From a virus (Duplodnaviria > Heunggongvirae > Uroviricota > Caudoviricetes > Peduoviridae): a DNA stretch of 31,596 nt. The translations under genes and the position numbers were made by a program. Positions 1 through 31,596 of this stretch are shown piece after piece. The notes below the pieces were generated by a model, which ran no database searches, was not told the DNA's origin, and saw only the letters and a program-made list of their open reading frames with translations. Location: IMG/VR virus record IMGVR_UViG_2565956719_000008; one strand, given 5' to 3'. Within the stretch, counting starts at the first letter, position 1. Every line of letters starts with the position of its first letter.

Positions 1-981
1 TTATAACGTCACTCCGCCTTTTAGTGGATTCAGAGCGACGGCATTTTGCAGATAGTCAGGCGCAAGGTGCGCATAGGCCATCGTCTGCTGAATGCTCGCA
101 TGTCCCAGAATCTGTTGCAGTGCGATTATATTGCCCCCATTCATCATGAAATGGCTTGCGAATGTATGCCGCAGGATGTGGGTTGCCTGATTGGGTGGTA
201 TATCAGGTTTCACTCTGCGTAAAATCCCGCAAAATTTCTCATAATCAACTTTGAATAATTTGGCGCTGGCCTCCTCTTTAACTTTTTTCTCCAGTTCCTC
301 AGAAATCGGCACGGTTCGCTTTTTACCGTTTTTGGTTTTCAGGAAGGTAACCCTGCAATTTGTAATCTGTGCTGGTTTTAGCGTGGCAACTTCCGTCCAT
401 CTTCCTCCAGTGCTCAGACATAAAAGCGCGACAAGTAAGTCATCACCAGCCAAAACATTTAACAGTTTTTCGATTTCTGCTTTTTCCAGGAACGTCATTT
501 CAGGGTTGGCCTCCGCCAGTGGCGGCAGTCCGTGAATTGGGTGTTGCCCGGAAAATTCATCCAATTGAATTAATTTTGTGAACATGCCGGATAATCGGTA
601 CATGTCACGGTTTATCGTTGCGGCACTGATACCATCACGTAGTCGCATGGAACGATAATCCATCAAAGCCCTTTTGCTCATCCTGCTCACTGGTATATCA
701 CCTATGCCGCTGATGGTTTTGAGTAGATGATTAAACTCTTTTGTTCCATGCTCGTGGTTTTGCCCGTGATATTTCCACCAGATGTCCAGCAACTCACTCA
801 AAGTCCGGCGGTCTGCTCGCTGGCCTCCCCATTCTTTCTGACTGGCATTGGCGATTGTGTATCGCTCAAATGCTAGTGCTTCAGCTTTTCTTTCGAATTT
901 CCTGCGGATGCGTTTTCCGTCGCGACCGCGAGGTCTAATGTCCACTTCATAGCGACCATCATCGAGCTTCTTAATTGCCAT
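1..981 (-). CDS. int: Tyrosine integrase (P2 Int-like)
   Basis: ORF-track frame 1..1011. In-frame ATG at 981..979 (MAIKKLDDG...) is preceded by GGAGGG with 7-nt spacing, whereas the ATG at 1011 has no SD. C-terminal HxxR...Y catalytic region (ILRHTFASHF...MAYAHL) is typical of tyrosine recombinases. Position next to C repressor, divergent from cox. Confidence 0.9.
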   Translation of the reverse strand: MAIKKLDDGRYEVDIRPRGRDGKRIRRKFERKAEALAFERYTIANASQKEWGGQRADRRTLSELLDIWWKYHGQNHEHGTKEFNHLLKTISGIGDIPVSRMSKRALMDYRSMRLRDGISAATINRDMYRLSGMFTKLIQLDEFSGQHPIHGLPPLAEANPEMTFLEKAEIEKLLNVLAGDDLLVALLCLSTGGRWTEVATLKPAQITNCRVTFLKTKNGKKRTVPISEELEKKVKEEASAKLFKVDYEKFCGILRRVKPDIPPNQATHILRHTFASHFMMNGGNIIALQQILGHASIQQTMAYAHLAPDYLQNAVALNPLKGGVTL

Positions 982-1050
982 AAGAAAGCCCTCCGGCGCT
1001 GTATTCACCATCTTGGTAGCAAATGGTGAAAATGTAATCTTTATATAGAG

Positions 1051-1344
1051 TTAGCCAATCCTTTTCGCGGAGTGGTTGGACTCTGTTGACTCTGGCCCAA
1101 TGTGCGCGAGAGCCGGTGCGATTTGTCCTGCGTCCGGCGCGGTTTTATCTGTCATAAGCCATAGAGCATATTTTTGGAATGTGGGATGCATAGTGATTTT
1201 TAGCAAAGCTGTGCCACCGGGTTCAAAGTTTCCTCCTTCATATTTTTTAAGTGTGCTTAGCGGTAACTCTATGATTTCACAGAATTTTGATTGGCTTAGC
1301 CCTTCAGCCTCACGCAAGGCCTTAATCTTTTCGCTTAATTTCAT
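1051..1344 (-). CDS. C: Immunity repressor C (HTH, P2 C-like)
   Basis: 97 aa; ATG at 1344..1342. N-terminal HTH-like segment (LSQSKFCEIIELPLSTLKKYE) and the QIAPALAH segment that I recall from P2 C. Located between int and a divergent cox. Confidence 0.85.
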   Translation of the reverse strand: MKLSEKIKALREAEGLSQSKFCEIIELPLSTLKKYEGGNFEPGGTALLKITMHPTFQKYALWLMTDKTAPDAGQIAPALAHIGPESTESNHSAKRIG

Positions 1345-1352
1345 TTGACATG

Positions 1353-1403
1353 GTGCCTATATAGGGACTAAATTCCCTCAAAACTGGAACCTATATAGGT
1401 TCC
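1353..1403. promoter_or_regulatory. C/cox switch region with two copies of the palindrome CCTATATAGG (candidate operators overlapping TATA-like -10 elements)
   Basis: CCTATATAGG at 1356..1365 and 1390..1399. The second is embedded in a perfect 18-bp palindrome GGAACCTATATAGGTTCC (1386..1403). Lies in the 135-bp intergenic region between divergent C and cox. Confidence 0.5.
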
Positions 1404-1480
1404 ATTGATTTGAGAATAAACCAGCGTCTAAACGGTTTTGAGTGGTTTAGAAAGGGCTGGATCCTATGAGGGTACCATAT

Positions 1481-1753
1481 ATGGACGCTGAAAATTATGT
1501 GATTCAGTATCCGCTTGATGCGGTTCATGTGGATAAATTTGCTGATTTATTAGGGAAGCCAAAGACAGCCGTCAGTGAAATGGTGAAGGCAAATAAATTA
1601 CCAATTATTGAATTGCGTGATCCTTGCAAACCGAAGGCTCGTGCCGGTGAAAAATGGGTTTTCATTCCTGAGTTTAATCGCGCTGTACGTGAGGCGTTTT
1701 ATAACCGACCGGTTGAACAGCGTGATGCATGGCTTTTGTGGATGGGGTTGTGA
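1481..1753 (+). CDS. cox: Cox-like excisionase / early transcriptional regulator
   Basis: About 90 aa from ATG 1481 (GAGGG SD 8 nt upstream); alternative ATG at 1466. C-terminal pattern RAGEKWVFIPEFN...RDAWLLWMGL parallels P2 Cox as I recall it. Confidence 0.75.
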   Translation: MDAENYVIQYPLDAVHVDKFADLLGKPKTAVSEMVKANKLPIIELRDPCKPKARAGEKWVFIPEFNRAVREAFYNRPVEQRDAWLLWMGL

Positions 1754-1755
1754 TT

Positions 1756-1926
1756 ATGAATGAGCCGCGTTGTATTGCTCAGTTACTGCGTAACGAAAGC
1801 CCCAGGGCGATTGACTTCACCATCACCCACGGGAAGGGTCGCAAGGGAATCATTATCCGCACCAAAAAACAGAGTCCGTTAAAAAAGGCTCTGACCTTTC
1901 TGAAAAGCCGGAGGGTCTGGAAATGA
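1756..1926 (+). CDS. Small hypothetical protein (P2 orf78 position)
   Basis: 56 aa from ATG 1756, 2 nt after the cox stop. Stop overlaps the B start (ATGA at 1923..1926). ORF-track start 1729 is upstream within cox. Confidence 0.45.
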   Translation: MNEPRCIAQLLRNESPRAIDFTITHGKGRKGIIIRTKKQSPLKKALTFLKSRRVWK

Positions 1927-2423
1927 CAGTGATGACGCTCAATCTCGTCGAAAAACAGCCAGCAACTATGCGCCGGATAATTGGTAAGCATCTGGCCGTC
2001 CCTCGCTGGCAGGATACATGTGATTATTATAATCAGATGATGGAGCGCGAACGGTTAACGGTTTGCTTTCATGCGCAGTTAAAACAGCGTCACGCAACGA
2101 TGCGTTTTGAAGAAATGAACGACGTCGAACGTGAACGGCTGGTTTGTGCAATTGATGAATTGCGTGGGGCATTCTCAAAACGCCGTCAGGTTGGCGCAAG
2201 TGAGTATGCATATATTAGTTTTTTAACAGTCAGTCAGCGTCGTACTTTATTTATGCATGCCGGATTGACTGAAAAAGAATTCAACCAGCCATACTGGCGA
2301 ATTAATGAAGAGTCATGTTACTGGCGTGATGCTTTATTCCGTGCATTACGTGAATTATTCAGTCTGTTTGAGTATGCACCGACAATTCTGACGTCGGTAA
2401 AACCAGAGCAATATCTGCATTAA
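1923..2423 (+). CDS. B: Replication protein B (P2 gpB-like)
   Basis: 166 aa, same length and position as P2 B; translationally coupled to the upstream ORF. Confidence 0.7.
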   Translation: MTVMTLNLVEKQPATMRRIIGKHLAVPRWQDTCDYYNQMMERERLTVCFHAQLKQRHATMRFEEMNDVERERLVCAIDELRGAFSKRRQVGASEYAYISFLTVSQRRTLFMHAGLTEKEFNQPYWRINEESCYWRDALFRALRELFSLFEYAPTILTSVKPEQYLH

Positions 2424-2486
2424 GTAATTAACCAGAGTTTTTAACGCACTTAATCGTGCGGGGCTTCTTTTTGCCTGGAGAAAGTT

Positions 2487-2711
2487 ATGCATACAGTTTC
2501 TGAAAATCAGTGCGGTAAATACGCATTACTGCTGCAACAGGCCAGAACCGAAGCACGGGCCGACGCTGCGACGCGCTTTTCTTCTCATCTTGATGCCATG
2601 ATTCGCCACATCACAAAGGCTGAGTTATCCCGTGTGGAGATAGTCGAGCTGCTCAGTCAGGAGTCGGAAAAATTTCACAATATCGGATTGTCTCGCGGGG
2701 AGGTGCTTTGA
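2487..2711 (+). CDS. Hypothetical early protein (P2 orf80 position)
   Basis: 74 aa; ATG 2487 with GGAG SD 6 nt upstream. Conserved position in the P2 early operon. Confidence 0.6.
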
Positions 2712-3013
2712 TGTCCTGTTCTCGTTCAGTTGTATTACTGAATAACGCCTTAAAAATCGCCGTTATGAAAAATGGCGATTTGTCTCTTATTCAACTTGGT
2801 ATTGATAAAGAGAAGCGCGAAATAACTGAATCTGTTATCGCGATTTATCAGAGTGAATTAAACCTCCTGTCTGATGTGGTCAATTTACTTGTTAAACGCG
2901 CTGTATTCCACAAGCAAATTTCCTCAGTGGATGAACTGACAAAATTAACGACAGAACTCGCCAGTTATTGCGCTGATGAATTTAAGAAGCTGAACGACAA
3001 AAGGAGCTGGTAA
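2711..3013 (+). CDS. Hypothetical early protein (P2 orf81 position)
   Basis: 100 aa from ATG 2711 (ORF-track start 2708 is TTG). GGGGAGG SD upstream; overlaps the previous stop by 1 nt. Confidence 0.6.
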   Translation: MSCSRSVVLLNNALKIAVMKNGDLSLIQLGIDKEKREITESVIAIYQSELNLLSDVVNLLVKRAVFHKQISSVDELTKLTTELASYCADEFKKLNDKRSW

Positions 3014-3237
3014 TGCCGGACAACGTAGATTTTATTCAGGAACAACAGGCTGAATTACTGGAGCGTCAGATTAACGCGGCAAGGGTAAAACATTGCGGTG
3101 CTTCTGCGCTGGTTTGCGAAGAGTGTGACGCGCCAATACCTGCTGCCCGTCGTGCGGCTTATCCGTCAGCCACGCGTTGTGTTTCCTGCCAGTCAGTCTT
3201 TGAAGCAAAAAACAAACATTACCGGAGAACGGCATGA
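3013..3237 (+). CDS. TraR/DksA-family C4 zinc-finger protein (P2 orf82 position)
   Basis: 74 aa; AAGGAG SD. Four-Cys motif CEEC...(17 aa)...CVSC, typical of TraR/DksA-type zinc fingers. Confidence 0.75.
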   Translation: MPDNVDFIQEQQAELLERQINAARVKHCGASALVCEECDAPIPAARRAAYPSATRCVSCQSVFEAKNKHYRRTA

Positions 3238-3509
3238 GTATTCGTATTGAAATTGGCGAACGTTATGTCGTTACCAGTGACAGCTTTCAGTTTATTCTCC
3301 ACGAGAAAAAGAGAGCGGAAAGCGGTAAAAACGCCGGTCAGGAATGGCTGGCGGTGGTTGGTTATTACCCGAAATTAGGCCAGCTCGTTTCCGGCCTGAT
3401 GCATCACGATATTCTGACCGGAAGCGCAAAATCTTTTGCTGATTTAAACGCGCAGGTTGAGCAACTCAGCAAGCGTTGTTCAGAGGCTTTTGGCTCATAT
3501 GGCCGTTAA
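3234..3509 (+). CDS. Hypothetical early protein (P2 orf83 position)
   Basis: 91 aa; ATG 3234 with GGAG SD; overlaps neighbouring genes at both ends. Confidence 0.6.
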   Translation: MSIRIEIGERYVVTSDSFQFILHEKKRAESGKNAGQEWLAVVGYYPKLGQLVSGLMHHDILTGSAKSFADLNAQVEQLSKRCSEAFGSYGR

Positions 3510-5784
3510 AGCCTCCGGGCGTTTTGTCCCTCCGTCAGCATTTACCGCAGGCACCGGTAAGGCGTTTACCGGTGCTTATGCATGGAACGCGCCACGCGAG
3601 GCTGTCGGGCGCGAAAGACCTCTTACACGTGACGAGATGCGTCAGGTGCAAGGTGTTTTATCCACGATTAACCGCCTGCCTTACTTTTTGCGCTCGCTGT
3701 TTACTTCACGCTATGACTACATCCGGCGCAATAAAAGCCCGGTGCACGGGTTTTATTTCCTCACATCTACTTTTCAGCGTCGTTTATGGCCGCGCATTGA
3801 GCGTGTGAATCAGCGCCATGAAATGAACACCGACGCGTCGTTGCTGTTTCTGGCAGAGCGTGACCACTATGCGCGCCTGCCGGGAATGAATGACAAGGAG
3901 CTGAAAAAGTTTGCCGCCCGTATCTCATCGCAGCTTTTCATGATGTATGAGGAACTCTGCGATGCATGGGTTGATGCGCATGGTGAAAAAGAATCGCTGT
4001 TTACGGATGAGGCGCAGGCTCACCTGTATGGTCATGTTGCTGGCGCTGCACGTGCTTTCAATATTTCCCCGCTCTACTGGAAAAAATACCGTAAAGGACA
4101 GATGACCACGAGGCAGGCATATTCTGCCATTGCCCGTCTGTTTAACGATGAGTGGTGGATTAGTCAGCTTAAAGGCCAGCGTATGCGCTGGCATGAGGCG
4201 TTACTGATTGCTGTCGGGGAGGTCAATAAAGACCGTTCTCCTTATGCCAGTAAACATGCCATTCGTGATGTGCGTGCACGCCGCCAGGCAAATCTGGAAT
4301 TTCTTAAATCGTGTGATCTCGAAAACAGGGAAACAGGCGAGCGCATCGACCTTATCAGTAAGGTGATGGGCAGTATTTCTAATCCTGAAATTCGCCGGAT
4401 GGAGCTGATGAACACCATTGCCGGTATTGAGCGTTACGCCGCCGCAGAGGGTGATGTGGGGATGTTTATCACGCTGACCGCGCCGTCAAAGTATCACCCG
4501 ACACGTCAGGTTGGAAAAGGCGAAAGTAAAACCGTCCAGCTTAATCACGGCTGGAATGATGAGGCATTTAATCCAAAGGATGCGCAGCGTTATCTCTGCC
4601 GTATCTGGAGCCTGATGCGCACGGCATTCAAGGATAATGATTTACAGGTCTACGGTTTGCGAGTCGTCGAGCCACACCACGACGGAACGCCGCACTGGCA
4701 TATGATGCTTTTTTGTAATCCACGCCAGCGTAACCAGATTATCGAAATCATGCGTCGCTATGCGCTCAAAGAGGATGGCGACGAAAGAGGAGCCGCGCGA
4801 AACCGTTTTCAGGCAAAACACCTTAACCGGGGCGGTGCTGCGGGATATATCGCGAAATACATTTCAAAAAATATCGACGGCTATGCACTGGATGGTCAGC
4901 TCGATAACGATACCGGCAGGCCGCTGAAAGACACTGCCGCGGCTGTTACCGCATGGGCGTCAACGTGGCGCATTCCGCAATTTAAAACGGTTGGCCTGCC
5001 GACAATGGGGGCTTACCGTGAACTACGCAAATTGCCTCGCGGCGTCAGCATTGCTGATGAGTTTGACGAGCGCGTCGAGGCTGCACGCGCCGCCGCAGAC
5101 AGTGGCGATTTTGCGTTGTATATCAGCGCGCAGGGTGGGGCAAATGTCCCGCGCGATTGTCAGACTGTCAGGGTCGCCCGTAGCCCGTCGGATGACGTTA
5201 ACGAGTACGAGGAAGAAGTCGAGAGAGTGGTCGGCATTTACGCGCCGCATCTCGGCGCGCGTCATATTCATATCACCAGAACGACGGACTGGCGCATTGT
5301 GCCGAAAGTTCCGGTCGTTGAGCCTTTGACTTTAAAAAGCGGCATCGCCGCGCCTCGGAGTCCTGTCAATAACTGTGGAAAGCTCACTGGTGGTGATACT
5401 TCGTTACCGGCTCCCACACCTTCTGAGCACGCCGCCGCAGTGCTTAATCTGGTTGATGACGGTGTTATCGAATGGAATGACCCGGAGGTCGTGAGGGCGC
5501 TCAGGGGCGCATTAAAACACGACCTGAGAACACCAAACCGTCAGCAAAGAAGCGGAAGCCCGTTAAAAGCGCATGAAATAGCGCCATCGGCCAGACTGAC
5601 CCGGTCGGAACGAATGCAAATTACCCGTATCCGCGTTGACCTTGCTCAGAACGGTATCAGGCCGCAGCGATGGGAGCTTGAGGCGCTGGTGCGTGGCGCG
5701 ACCGTAAATTATGACGGGAAAAAATTCACGTATCCGGTCGCTGATGAGTGGCCGGGATTCTCAACAGTAATGGAGTGGACATGA
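3499..5784 (+). CDS. A: Replication initiation endonuclease A (HUH rolling-circle initiator, P2 gpA-like)
   Basis: 761 aa from ATG 3499 (MAVKASGRF...), which matches the P2 gpA N-terminus as I recall it. ORF-track start 3457 is TTG. HUH motif (TPHWHMM) and active-site tyrosine motif (YIAKYISK) are present. Confidence 0.9.
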   Translation: MAVKASGRFVPPSAFTAGTGKAFTGAYAWNAPREAVGRERPLTRDEMRQVQGVLSTINRLPYFLRSLFTSRYDYIRRNKSPVHGFYFLTSTFQRRLWPRIERVNQRHEMNTDASLLFLAERDHYARLPGMNDKELKKFAARISSQLFMMYEELCDAWVDAHGEKESLFTDEAQAHLYGHVAGAARAFNISPLYWKKYRKGQMTTRQAYSAIARLFNDEWWISQLKGQRMRWHEALLIAVGEVNKDRSPYASKHAIRDVRARRQANLEFLKSCDLENRETGERIDLISKVMGSISNPEIRRMELMNTIAGIERYAAAEGDVGMFITLTAPSKYHPTRQVGKGESKTVQLNHGWNDEAFNPKDAQRYLCRIWSLMRTAFKDNDLQVYGLRVVEPHHDGTPHWHMMLFCNPRQRNQIIEIMRRYALKEDGDERGAARNRFQAKHLNRGGAAGYIAKYISKNIDGYALDGQLDNDTGRPLKDTAAAVTAWASTWRIPQFKTVGLPTMGAYRELRKLPRGVSIADEFDERVEAARAAADSGDFALYISAQGGANVPRDCQTVRVARSPSDDVNEYEEEVERVVGIYAPHLGARHIHITRTTDWRIVPKVPVVEPLTLKSGIAAPRSPVNNCGKLTGGDTSLPAPTPSEHAAAVLNLVDDGVIEWNDPEVVRALRGALKHDLRTPNRQQRSGSPLKAHEIAPSARLTRSERMQITRIRVDLAQNGIRPQRWELEALVRGATVNYDGKKFTYPVADEWPGFSTVMEWT

Positions 5785-6236
5785 TGGCAAAAATTCACGA
5801 GGTAAAGCTGCACGCAAAATATTTTGACCTTGTGCTGGAAGGAAAGAAACGCGCAGAGTTTCGGAAAAATGACCGTAATTATGAGCGCGGGGACACGTTG
5901 ATTTTGCATGAATGGGCGCAGGGTGTGTATACGGGGCGAAAGGTTGAAGCCCGGATAACAGATGTTACTGACCTGTCAGACTGGCTGGAAGATTATGTCT
6001 TGCTAAGTATTGAGCTGCTTAATACAGGCGCATATGAGATTGTGAACTGGAAAGAACTTAGTGAGCGTGGTCTGGTATTCAGAATTAATCATGAAATTAT
6101 GCATCAGCTCGGCCTTGCTGTTATGTATGCACCAGAGACGGGGATGTCTGGCGGGGCAATGGTTGCCACGGATGGAGCATGGAACTATTCAGATGAACAG
6201 ATTGAGCGTGCAAAGCAAAACGGGTGGCTTGGATAA
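5781..6236 (+). CDS. ASCH/DUF3850-like domain protein (predicted RNA-binding PUA-like fold) with uncharacterised C-terminal half
   Basis: ATG 5781 overlaps the A stop (ATGA); GGAG SD 5 nt upstream. N-terminal segment KIHEVKLHAKYFDLVLEGKKRAEFRKNDRNYERGDTLILHEW resembles the DUF3850/ASCH signature from memory. Confidence 0.6.
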   Translation: MMAKIHEVKLHAKYFDLVLEGKKRAEFRKNDRNYERGDTLILHEWAQGVYTGRKVEARITDVTDLSDWLEDYVLLSIELLNTGAYEIVNWKELSERGLVFRINHEIMHQLGLAVMYAPETGMSGGAMVATDGAWNYSDEQIERAKQNGWLG

Positions 6237-28994: not shown

Positions 28995-30157
28995 TGCTGG
29001 ATGCACTGACATTTGATGCAGGCAGTACGCTGACGCCGGATTACATGCTGATGCTCGACAGCAGGGATATTACCGGCAATATCAGCGACCGTCTGATGAG
29101 CATGACCCTGACGGATAACCGAGGCTTTGAGGCTGACCAGCTTGATATTGAACTGAACGATGCCGACGGGCAGGTCGGGCTGCCGGTTCGTGGCGCTGTC
29201 CTGACGGTGTATATCGGCTGGAAAGGTTTTGCCCTGGTATGCAAAGGGAAATTTACCGTTGATGAGGTTGAACACCGGGGCGCGCCGGATGTGGTCACCA
29301 TCCGCGCCCGGAGTGCAGATTTTCGCGGGACGCTCAATTCCCGCCGTGAAGGCTCCTGGCATGACACCACGCTCGGTGCGATTGTTGAGGCGATAGCCTC
29401 CCGTAACAGGCTGGAAGCCAGTGTCGCTCCGTCACTGGCCGGAATTAAAATCCCGCACATCGACCAGTCGCAGGAGTCTGATGCGAAATTCCTGGCCCGT
29501 CTTGCAGAACGCAACGGCGGTGAGGTCTCGGTAAAAATGGGAAAACTGTTGTTTCTCAAAGCGGGGCAGGGGGTGACGGCCAGTGGTAAAAAAATCCCGC
29601 AGGTCACCATAACCCGCAGCGACGGCGACCGCCATCATTTTGCGATTGCTGACCGTGGAGCCTATACCGGCGTAACGGCAAAGTGGTTACACACCAAAGA
29701 CCCGAAGCCACAAAAGCAGAAGGTAAAACTGAAACGCAAAAAGAAAGAGAAACACCTGCGCGCACTGGAGCACCCGAAAGCGAAACCGGTCACGCAGAAG
29801 AAAGCGCCAAAAGTACCGGAAGCGCGCGAAGGTGAATACATGGCAGGTGAGGCTGACAACGTTTTTGCCCTGACCACGGTATATGCCACGAAAGCGCAGG
29901 CCATGCGCGCCGCTCAGGCGAAGTGGGATAAACTGCAACGGGGCGTTGCGGAGTTTTCCATCAGTCTGGCTACCGGTCGTGCAGATATTTACACGGAAAC
30001 ACCGGTCAGAGTGTCAGGCTTTAAGCGCGTCATAGACGAGCAGGACTGGACAATCACTAAGGTGACACATTTTCTGAATAATAGCGGCTTCACGACGTCC
30101 TTGGAGCTTGAGGTCAGGCTTTCTGATGTGGAGTACGAAACAGAAGATGATGAGTGA
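28994..30157 (+). CDS. D: Tail protein D (late control gene D, P2 gpD-like)
   Basis: 387 aa; start overlaps the U stop. Position and length as P2 D. Confidence 0.9.
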   Translation: MLDALTFDAGSTLTPDYMLMLDSRDITGNISDRLMSMTLTDNRGFEADQLDIELNDADGQVGLPVRGAVLTVYIGWKGFALVCKGKFTVDEVEHRGAPDVVTIRARSADFRGTLNSRREGSWHDTTLGAIVEAIASRNRLEASVAPSLAGIKIPHIDQSQESDAKFLARLAERNGGEVSVKMGKLLFLKAGQGVTASGKKIPQVTITRSDGDRHHFAIADRGAYTGVTAKWLHTKDPKPQKQKVKLKRKKKEKHLRALEHPKAKPVTQKKAPKVPEAREGEYMAGEADNVFALTTVYATKAQAMRAAQAKWDKLQRGVAEFSISLATGRADIYTETPVRVSGFKRVIDEQDWTITKVTHFLNNSGFTTSLELEVRLSDVEYETEDDE

Positions 30158-30238
30158 TGTTTTTATTTTATCTGTTTGTTTTATAAGGATAAATTAACTA
30201 AAATGGCACCATCAACAAAACCGGAAGAGGTGCTCGCG

Positions 30239-30457
30239 ATGTTTCATTGTCCTTTATGCCAGCATGCCGCACATGCGCGTACAAGCCGCTATATCACTGA
30301 CACGACAAAAGAGCGTTATCACCAGTGTCAGAACGTGAATTGCAGCGCCACGTTCATCACCTATGAGTCGGTACAGAGATACATCGTGAAGCCGGGAGAA
30401 GTCCACGCCGTAAGGCCGCACCCGTTGCCGTCAGGGCAGCAAATTATGTGGATGTGA
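30239..30457 (+). CDS. ogr: Late-gene transcriptional activator Ogr (Cys4 zinc finger)
   Basis: 72 aa from ATG 30239 (MFHCPLCQHAAHARTSRYITD...), which matches P2 Ogr as recalled. Cys-x2-Cys...Cys-x4-Cys zinc-binding pattern. ORF-track start 30176 is TTG; another in-frame ATG is at 30203. Confidence 0.85.
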   Translation: MFHCPLCQHAAHARTSRYITDTTKERYHQCQNVNCSATFITYESVQRYIVKPGEVHAVRPHPLPSGQQIMWM

Positions 30458-30467
30458 TCACAAAAAT

Positions 30468-30494
30468 AGCCCCTCAGTTGAGGGGCTTTATTTA
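30468..30494 (+). terminator. Rho-independent terminator after ogr
   Basis: AGCCCCTC-agtt-GAGGGGCT followed by TTATTTAT. Confidence 0.55.
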
Positions 30495-30500
30495 TGGTCG

Positions 30501-30519
30501 ATGTGGACGCTATGTGGAC
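30501..30519 (+). repeat. Tandem direct repeats ATGTGGAC with 11-bp spacing (candidate integrase arm-binding sites)
   Basis: ATGTGGAC at 30501..30508 and 30512..30519, between ogr and the prophage/host junction where P2-type att arm sites lie. Confidence 0.35.
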
Positions 30520-30568
30520 AGCGGTTGACATAAATCCATTTATATCATCAGGTTAGGTGCTTTTTTTT

Positions 30569-30612
30569 GACACCATCCCTGTCTTCCCCCACATGATGTG
30601 GGGGTTTTTTTT
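30569..30612 (+). terminator. Strong rho-independent terminator resembling the cpxP 3' end / CpxQ sRNA; candidate attR core region
   Basis: T8 run (30561..30568), then GACACCATCCCTGTCTT and hairpin CCCCCAC-atgat-GTGGGGG followed by T8 (30605..30612). From memory this resembles the cpxP terminator/CpxQ 3' end that precedes fieF in E. coli. Confidence 0.4.
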
Positions 30613-30693
30613 ATCCTCAATTTGCCTGCTGCTTAATGCATTGCAGATGATTTGCTTCCGTTATACTACCGTCAGTTGATAGCGGGAGTATTT

Positions 30694-31596
30694 ATGAATC
30701 AATCTTATGGACGGCTGGTCAGTCGGGCGGCGATTGCTGCGACGGCGATGGCTTCGCTGCTATTGCTGATTAAAATTTTTGCATGGTGGTATACCGGGTC
30801 GGTGAGTATTCTCGCCGCGCTGGTGGATTCGCTGGTGGATATCGGCGCGTCGTTGACGAATTTACTGGTGGTGCGATATTCCCTGCAACCTGCCGACGAT
30901 AATCACTCGTTTGGTCACGGTAAAGCTGAGTCCCTCGCGGCGCTGGCGCAAAGTATGTTTATCTCCGGTTCGGCACTATTCCTGTTTTTGACGGGTATTC
31001 AACATCTGGTATCTCCAACACCGATGACAGATCCAGGCGTCGGGGTTATCGTGACAATTGTGGCGCTAATTTGTACGATTATCCTTGTCTCGTTTCAGCG
31101 TTGGGTGGTGCGCCGGACGCAAAGCCAGGCGGTGCGGGCTGATATGCTACATTACCAGTCTGATGTTATGATGAACGGCGCAATTCTGCTGGCGCTGGGG
31201 TTGTCCTGGTACGGCTGGCATCGCGCCGATGCTCTGTTTGCATTGGGGATCGGCATCTATATTTTATATAGCGCGTTACGCATGGGATATGAGGCGGTAC
31301 AGTCATTACTGGATCGCGCATTGCCTGATGAGGAACGGCAAGAAATTATTGATATCGTGACTTCCTGGCCGGGTGTTAGCGGCGCTCACGATCTTCGCAC
31401 GCGGCAGTCAGGGCCGACCCGCTTTATTCAGATTCATTTGGAAATGGAAGACTCTCTGCCTTTGGTTCAGGCACATATGGTGGCGGATCAGGTAGAGCAG
31501 GCTATTTTACGGCGTTTTCCGGGATCGGATGTGATTATCCATCAGGACCCCTGTTCCGTCGTACCCAGGGAGGGTAAACGGTCTATGCTTTCATAA
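30694..31596 (+). CDS. fieF: Cation-diffusion-facilitator family Fe/Zn efflux transporter FieF (YiiP)
   Basis: 300 aa from ATG 30694 ([21 protein letters not shown]...), recognised as E. coli FieF. ORF-track upstream extension to 30652 is not supported. Window ends at its stop codon. Confidence 0.95.

Follow-up and report, generated by a model that had tools for sequence, protein, structure and literature searches.

The interval between ogr and fieF is very probably the attR of a WPhi-type P2-family prophage with an attachment core that takes in the 3′ part of CpxQ

Genes and features of the junction

The window, i.e., the whole stretch of 31,596 nucleotides analyzed here, starts at the stop codon of an integrase gene (1–981, minus strand, 326 amino acids), the product of which is 98% identical to WPhi Int, and ends at the stop codon of the host gene fieF (30694–31596, plus strand, by annotation). 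The P′ arm sites and attL fall outside of it, from 14 nt beyond its left edge. At the right end, the last phage gene is ogr (30239–30457, plus strand), coding for the late-gene activator, which is a listed open reading frame and carries the annotation ogrK in strain Z247, over a stretch with 100% identity to the window. The spacer between the ogr stop (30457) and the fieF start (30694) is exactly the region 30458–30693 under study, and all features described in the following are given for the plus strand.

Downstream of ogr, a Rho-independent terminator of ogr and the F operon (30468–30487) was called by a terminator scan and folds as RNA with z = -4.3. It is homologous to a terminator annotated in P2 (NC_001895), and its U-tract is interrupted (TTTATTTAT). 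Next to it lie two direct repeats, ATGTGGAC(G) and ATGTGGAC(A), with the octamers at 30501–30508 and 30512–30519 (11 bp from start to start), which are predicted to be the arm-type Int sites of the P arm (30501–30520) on the basis of the P2 alignment and of the published consensus. The octamer occurs three times in the window against 1.02 times expected, a count reached by 9 of 100 shuffles and thus not significant; the repeats were judged to be real because of their conservation in WPhi and P2, not because of their number. The same repeat pair is present in the attP of WPhi, which carries these repeats on both arms at a spacing of 11 bp, and P2 contains a near-identical pair where the RefSeq record annotates ‘Int, P arm’ (protein_bind). 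Both the P-arm repeats of the window and the P′-arm repeats of its relatives fit the consensus tgTGGaCa of P2-type arm sites (Nilsson et al., 2011, PMC3448106).

A putative third copy, GGTTGACA at 30523–30530, was rejected, as it is spaced by 10 bp, lies off-phase, matches at six of eight positions and is not conserved in WPhi. A near copy of the arm repeat, TATGTGGA, is also found at 30445–30452 in the last codons of ogr (…IMWM, then the stop codon), 66 nt upstream of the second repeat; this resemblance is probably a coincidence of the coding sequence.

The IHF-like sequence TATCATCAGGTTA (30543–30555), with an A/T-rich tract upstream, matches WATCAANNNNTTR at 12 of 13 positions and aligns with the IHF footprint annotated in P2. 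In a scan with the IHF consensus the motif was not above chance (19 found against 23.7 expected), and positional homology to P2 was the sole reason for keeping the site. Binding of Int, IHF and Cox is predicted here from the homology to the annotated footprints of P2.

Between the IHF-like site and the core, a run of eight Ts (30561–30568) forms the phage-derived spacer of the P arm directly left of the core. No convincing hairpin is formed by this run. WPhi has TTTTTTGT at this place and the second phage lineage described below has GATTTCTT; as the run is not conserved between phages, no specific role was assigned to it. The phage sequence GGTGCTTTTTTTT (30556–30568) resembles, at 85%, the 3′ half and U-tract of the terminator located further downstream (GGGGGTTTTTTTT, 30600–30612); a 5′ stem to match it is lacking, and it is not conserved in WPhi.

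The remainder of the region is shared with host genomes. A core of 47 bp (30569–30615) is common to attP, attB, attL and attR, its start being given by the start of the host match (30569) and its end by the end of the match to the WPhi attP (30615). Within this core lies the cpxP/CpxQ Rho-independent terminator (30586–30612), which consists of an 8-bp stem, a UGA loop and U8. The B′ arm (30616–30693) is the native upstream region of fieF; it is close to the one of K-12, with one substitution, and identical in other prophage-free E. coli. All four elements on which a sequence-only reading of this DNA had been built, namely the ogr terminator, the tandem repeats with their 11-bp spacing, the T8 run after them and the hairpin followed by T8, were found in place, and its proposal that the repeats are of the arm type is in line with the consensus and with the Int P arm of P2.

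Identity of the junction

The right part of the region is matched by all of the 5426 complete E. coli genomes, and in prophage-free E. coli, including K-12 W3110, the match to the window begins exactly at 30569. Over 30569–30693, the attB of K-12 W3110 shows two differences, which are the loop base at 30596 and the one substitution upstream of fieF. The comparison with prophage-free E. coli that the sequence-only reading had put forward as a check therefore supports it: these genomes are contiguous with the window from 30569, and K-12 differs by one loop base within the core.

On the phage side, 30500–30615 is 97–100% identical to the ogr–int spacers of WPhi, L-413C, R18C and ~40 other peduoviruses, and all matches of peduovirus attP sequences to the window end at 30615. 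It was a four-way alignment of the WPhi attP, the window, an attL and the K-12 attB that yielded the common core of 47 bp. The first 25 kb of the window are 96.8% identical, over 92% of their length, to a phage of the WPhi/L-413C group. Among complete E. coli genomes, the nearest one shares 98.6% identity over positions 1–6000 of the window, and strain Z247 (NZ_CP021207.1) is 100% identical to the window across attR. The prophage of Z247 is 98.4% identical to the window over the first 6 kb, yet ~3.1 kb longer, implying that the two differ in cargo or at a hotspot within the prophage, at about 6000–30000 of the window. These observations make it very probable that 30458–30693 is the attR of a Peduovirus prophage (P2 family, WPhi type), which occupies the WPhi attB in the cpxP–fieF interval.

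The attB of WPhi and L-413C has been mapped to MG1655 coordinate 4104392 (Nilsson et al., 2011, PMC3448106), and ‘cpxP-fieF: Wphi1 (P2)’ is given in the genome paper of E. coli W next to P2-type insertions at rybB, cyaR and ssrA (PMC3032704). The WPhi/L-413C att region and the window have in common the core of 47 bp, a P arm with 97–98% identity, an Int with 98% identity and the locus itself. WPhi differs from the window by T6GT in place of T8, by two substitutions in the P arm and by other cargo elsewhere in the prophage. The primary paper on the WPhi att sites is that of Ahlgren-Berg et al. 2009 (Virology). In published descriptions, which are older than the discovery of CpxQ, the WPhi site is intergenic.

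For P2 itself, the annotated order in NC_001895 is ogr, terminator, Int P arm, IHF, core, Cox and Int P′ arm. The alignment of the window to P2 covers the terminator, both arm repeats and the region of the IHF site, and the architecture is the same. However, P2 has an unrelated core (AAAAAATAAGCCCGTGTAAGGGAGATT) and another host site, with P2-type elements being found at cyaR (PMC3032704).

The left end in related lysogens

Since the window's own attL lies beyond its edge and no complete genome is 100% identical to the window, the duplication of the core was observed in close relatives. The identical Int protein, which contains the domains PF24624 (Int_N) and PF00589 (Phage_integrase), adjoins cpxP in eight of the eight places listed. 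The attL region was read in Z247, TL-14, Y5, AR_0137 and M217 as well as in eight contigs encoding the identical Int, each of which has at least 36 mismatches to the window in 3.9 kb. In 12 lysogens related to the window, of which eight encode the identical Int, the order is cpxP stop, 23 nt, core, P′ arm and int stop. A second copy of the core just beyond the int stop, which the sequence-only reading had named as a further check, was present in every related lysogen read.

The P′ arm of these relatives is ~100 nt long and contains two more TGTGGACA repeats, with GTGTGGACACTATGTGGACAC beside the int stop; it ends in GAGTGTGGACACTATGTGGACACTC, followed by 14 nt and then by the int stop codon. 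To the left of position 1 of the window, TAAATTTCCCCCTCTGAGTGTCCACATAGTGTCCACAC..., the reverse complement of the core and then cpxP are expected. As judged from the close relatives, cpxP and CpxQ would both be intact at attL, with the full 58 nt of CpxQ restored. Among the attL copies, the boundary between the G-run and the T-run of the terminator varies (5G8T, 6G7T, 5G7T, 4G9T, and 4G8T). Such differences might stem from assembly errors in homopolymers or else be genuine phage alleles by which the CpxQ terminator is altered.

The core and CpxQ

CpxQ is a Hfq-dependent RNA of ~60 nt that is cut from the cpxP mRNA by RNase E, makes up nearly the whole 3′ UTR and exceeds cpxP in conservation (PMC9438474). 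For nhaB and cfa, it is the 5′ end of CpxQ that acts as the seed (PMC6755755). In K-12 W3110, the spacer reads cpxP TAG, TAAACCCTGTTTTCCTTGCCATA, GACACCATCCCTGTCTTCCCCCACATGCTGTGGGGGTTTTTTTTATC, CCTCAATTTGCC and on to fieF. The hairpin of the window, CCCCCACA-TGA-TGTGGGGG (30586–30604), is perfect and is followed by T8 at 30605–30612; together they were called as a terminator, with an RNA fold of -16.5 kcal/mol and z = -2.9. The hairpin differs from the one of K-12 in the loop base only; the latter is the sole terminator between cpxP and fieF there and is located within the ~60-nt CpxQ region, which supports the assignment to the cpxP 3′ end and CpxQ made by the sequence-only reading.

The core at 30569–30615 equals CpxQ nt 15–58 plus ATC, where both the CpxQ numbering (58 nt counted back from U8) and the 47-nt core are based on our own alignments and on reviews. 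The attachment core does not only overlap with the terminator of the small RNA, as had been suggested, but takes it in. Likewise, the earlier proposal of an integration into the 3′ end of cpxP holds for the 3′ UTR and CpxQ, but not for the coding sequence, as the core begins 24 nt past the stop codon.

At attR, positions 30569–30612 are CpxQ nt 15–58 apart from the loop polymorphism. The 5′ seed (the first ~14 nt, UUUUCCUUGCCAUA) is replaced by phage sequence, namely GGTGCTTTTTTTT, and the copy follows ogr at a distance of ~31 kb from cpxP, whereas the attL copy of the relatives directly follows the cpxP stop codon. The attR copy is hence a fragment of CpxQ and no CpxQ gene: the seed (nt 1–14) and the coupling to the cpxP promoter are only found in CpxQ itself. 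It does retain the Rho-independent terminator with its U-tract, i.e., the Hfq-binding 3′ module.

An Rfam search yielded no plus-strand match for CpxQ. The only notable hit was the model RF02628 (Hrs1), which matches the reverse complement of CpxQ, with 31.9 bits at 30546–30612 (minus strand) of the window and with 41.4 bits at 1172–1244 (minus strand) of the stretch read in K-12, both being below the gathering score of 56.4; its consensus begins with A7, followed by the hairpin. Hrs1 of Erwinia amylovora is a Hfq-regulated small RNA of 74 nt encoded between cpxP and fieF, and hrs1 is oriented like these two genes and has a terminator (PMC4070566). This location and orientation imply that Hrs1 is the Erwinia homolog of CpxQ. 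The RF02628 model therefore appears to have been built on the opposite strand, which explains why a plus-strand CpxQ match is missing.

Integration at the 3′ ends of RNA genes is known from 186 in tRNA-Ile, from Fels-2 and SopEPhi in ssrA and from P2-like elements at rybB and cyaR (PMC3448106; PMC3032704). Integrators into tRNA, tmRNA and small RNA genes have in common with the window that a long core copies the 3′ part of the small RNA and the gene is kept whole. In contrast to these free-standing RNA genes, the target in this case is a 3′-UTR-derived small RNA cut from an mRNA. No paper naming CpxQ together with P2-like phages or attachment sites was found in the searchable literature.

Distribution of the site and other integrase lineages

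Of the 5426 complete E. coli genomes, 4591 contain the empty site, and ~835 (15%) are occupied. Among the occupied genomes, 790 have a WPhi-type P arm at attR and 531 a WPhi-type P′ arm at attL. The same core is found in Salmonella phages. In addition, a Salmonella Infantis prophage has been located between fieF and cpxP, and a study of STEC O157 described a 31-kb prophage between cpxP and fieF.

Integrase relatives are present in eight other genera, represented by Kosakonia, Citrobacter, Yokenella, Serratia, Yersinia aldovae, Pseudocitrobacter, Rosenbergiella, and Acerihabitans. Site-bearing Int relatives with at least 63% identity adjoin a CpxQ-like attL; two Int loci of Morganella (65% identity) are not located beside such an attL. 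In the attL copies of the other genera, TTTTCCTTGCCATAGACACCATCCCTGTCTT is essentially invariant. The hairpin differs across genera, with compensatory changes at three stem pairs.

The circular record NZ_JBQJRQ010000002.1 (32,330 bp, ‘plasmid unnamed3’) has been deposited as a plasmid but represents a P2-like phage genome. In the attP of this phage (2860–3160 of the stretch read), the CpxQ core is the same but begins with CACC, two bases further on; the arms are different and both carry TGTAGTCA/TGTAGACA repeats, and the Int of this phage is 67% identical to the one of the window. It is thus a second integrase lineage with the same target. As a different Int occurs here together with different arm repeats, repeats and integrase change together, which supports the assignment of the repeats as arm sites.

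Position of the strand exchange

The loop base at 30596 is polymorphic in E. coli, with a C in K-12 and an A in many prophage-free strains as well as in the window. Phage attP copies contain an A at this position and K-12-type hosts a C, and the base can be followed through the two junctions of a lysogen. In 23 genomes, the attR is identical to the one of TL-14 and contains the C. A search at 100% identity with C-bearing attL queries, covering both common variants of the P′ arm, matched none of the 531 genomes with a WPhi-type attL. Of the 23 genomes with C at attR, 21 show exactly one mismatch to the C query, and in three of these lysogens, which were read directly, the differing base of attL is the A of the loop (attL with A, attR with C). 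These 21 to 23 lysogens represent one prophage variant and perhaps few integration events, and hence few independent observations.

Since the loop base moves with the right flank, i.e., with P′ in attL and with B′ in attR, the exchange has to lie to its left. The second phage lineage is identical to the host only from 30571 on, and together with the loop polymorphism this would confine the strand exchange to 30571–30595, on that side of the hairpin loop which faces cpxP. With an exchange to the left of 30596, the A in empty sites is an ordinary host polymorphism and no scar left by a phage.

The only short inverted repeat seen in the exchange interval is GACA-CCATCCC-TGTC (30569–30583, spacer of 7 nt), which is invariant across genera. 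Core sites of tyrosine recombinases usually consist of an inverted repeat around the overlap region. We therefore propose GACA-CCATCCC-TGTC as the candidate crossover site, with the two half-repeats as the putative pair of Int core sites and the spacer as the putative overlap.

Alternative interpretations

The hairpin with T8 at 30586–30612 might also be taken for a terminator of the phage, in which case the true junction would be located further to the right. The phage attP does have an identical hairpin, and the phage and host copies look alike in most lysogens. However, prophage-free genomes run contiguous with the window from 30569, and in lysogens of hosts with the loop C the attR hairpin has the host allele and the attL hairpin the phage allele. 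The hairpin beside fieF is therefore host-derived, and a junction further to the right is exceedingly improbable. Similarly, the ATGTGGAC repeats could be operators for the C repressor, Cox or Ogr, or a product of chance, considering that the octamer is not significantly more frequent in the window than expected by chance and that short direct repeats are also bound by the C and Cox proteins of the P2 family. This has next to no probability in view of the 11-bp repeats on both arms of WPhi, their near-identity in P2 at homologous positions, the exact coincidence with the Int binding annotated in the P2 record, the agreement with the published arm consensus, and the lineage with the 67%-identical Int, in which both arms changed together to TGTAG(T/A)CA.

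A different question is whether the attR copy has a function of its own. It could be transcribed, for instance by late read-through past the ogr terminator, into a 5′-truncated CpxQ-like RNA that serves as a regulator or as a competitor for Hfq, as the internal conserved region and the Hfq-type terminator would be kept in such an RNA. In its folding, the fragment resembles the 3′ part of CpxQ, and it lies ~80 nt downstream of the ogr terminator, the U-tract of which is interrupted. Nevertheless, no sigma-70-like promoter was found in 30100–30800, the 5′ seed for nhaB and cfa is missing, and the native context for RNase E processing is replaced by phage sequence, so that we consider a functional truncated RNA to be very unlikely. 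There is a similarly slight chance that WPhi-type lysogeny is non-neutral for the Cpx envelope-stress response, due to the phage CpxQ allele at attL and the orphan module at attR. If this was the case, a phage-borne allele would take the place of about two-thirds of CpxQ at attL, comprising the internal conserved region as well as the terminator. The orphan CpxQ 3′ module at attR, with its Hfq-type terminator, could be transcribed by read-through from ogr and the late operon upon induction and serve as a shortened regulator or as a sponge for Hfq, and CpxQ termination would be tuned by the G/T-run variants of attL, provided that these are no assembly errors. As no promoter was found and the seed is missing, a regulatory effect of the attR module or of the phage-borne CpxQ allele at attL appears unlikely.

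Proposed mechanism and significance

With 30458–30693 read as the attR of a WPhi-type prophage, integration can be pictured as follows. A heterobivalent tyrosine Int would bind to arm-type repeats (TGTGGAC) on either arm, two of them in the P arm beside ogr and two more in the P′ arm beside int, with the P arm being bent by IHF. Int would then exchange strands within the core of 47 bp common to phage and host, which corresponds to the 3′ three-quarters of CpxQ (nt 15–58, including the terminator) plus 3 nt. The exchange would take place within the left portion of the core, the remainder of which would be supplied by the phage's own copy; by this combination, cpxP–CpxQ would be rebuilt at attL from host 5′ and phage 3′ DNA. 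Because the exchange probably lies left of the loop, most of the working CpxQ gene at attL in lysogens would be phage DNA. The original 3′ part of the host CpxQ, together with its terminator, would stay at attR, directly upstream of the undisturbed control region of fieF. In this position, the terminator may also stop read-through from the phage late operon and thereby have an insulating role.

Neither the site nor the arm repeats are new, and the rebuilding of the 3′ end of a small RNA is an established principle as well. The explicit link to CpxQ and the placement of the crossover are small additions to them and no new kind of thing, and beyond correct annotation the importance of these findings is little. 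Still, the classical WPhi attB, described before CpxQ, can now be recognized as the body of CpxQ. For the prophage, an exact boundary can be marked, as phage DNA would end within 30569–30595 and the shared core ends at 30615. For its hosts, the analysis identifies a very common insertion hotspot of E. coli at which neither fieF nor cpxP/CpxQ would be disrupted by the prophage.
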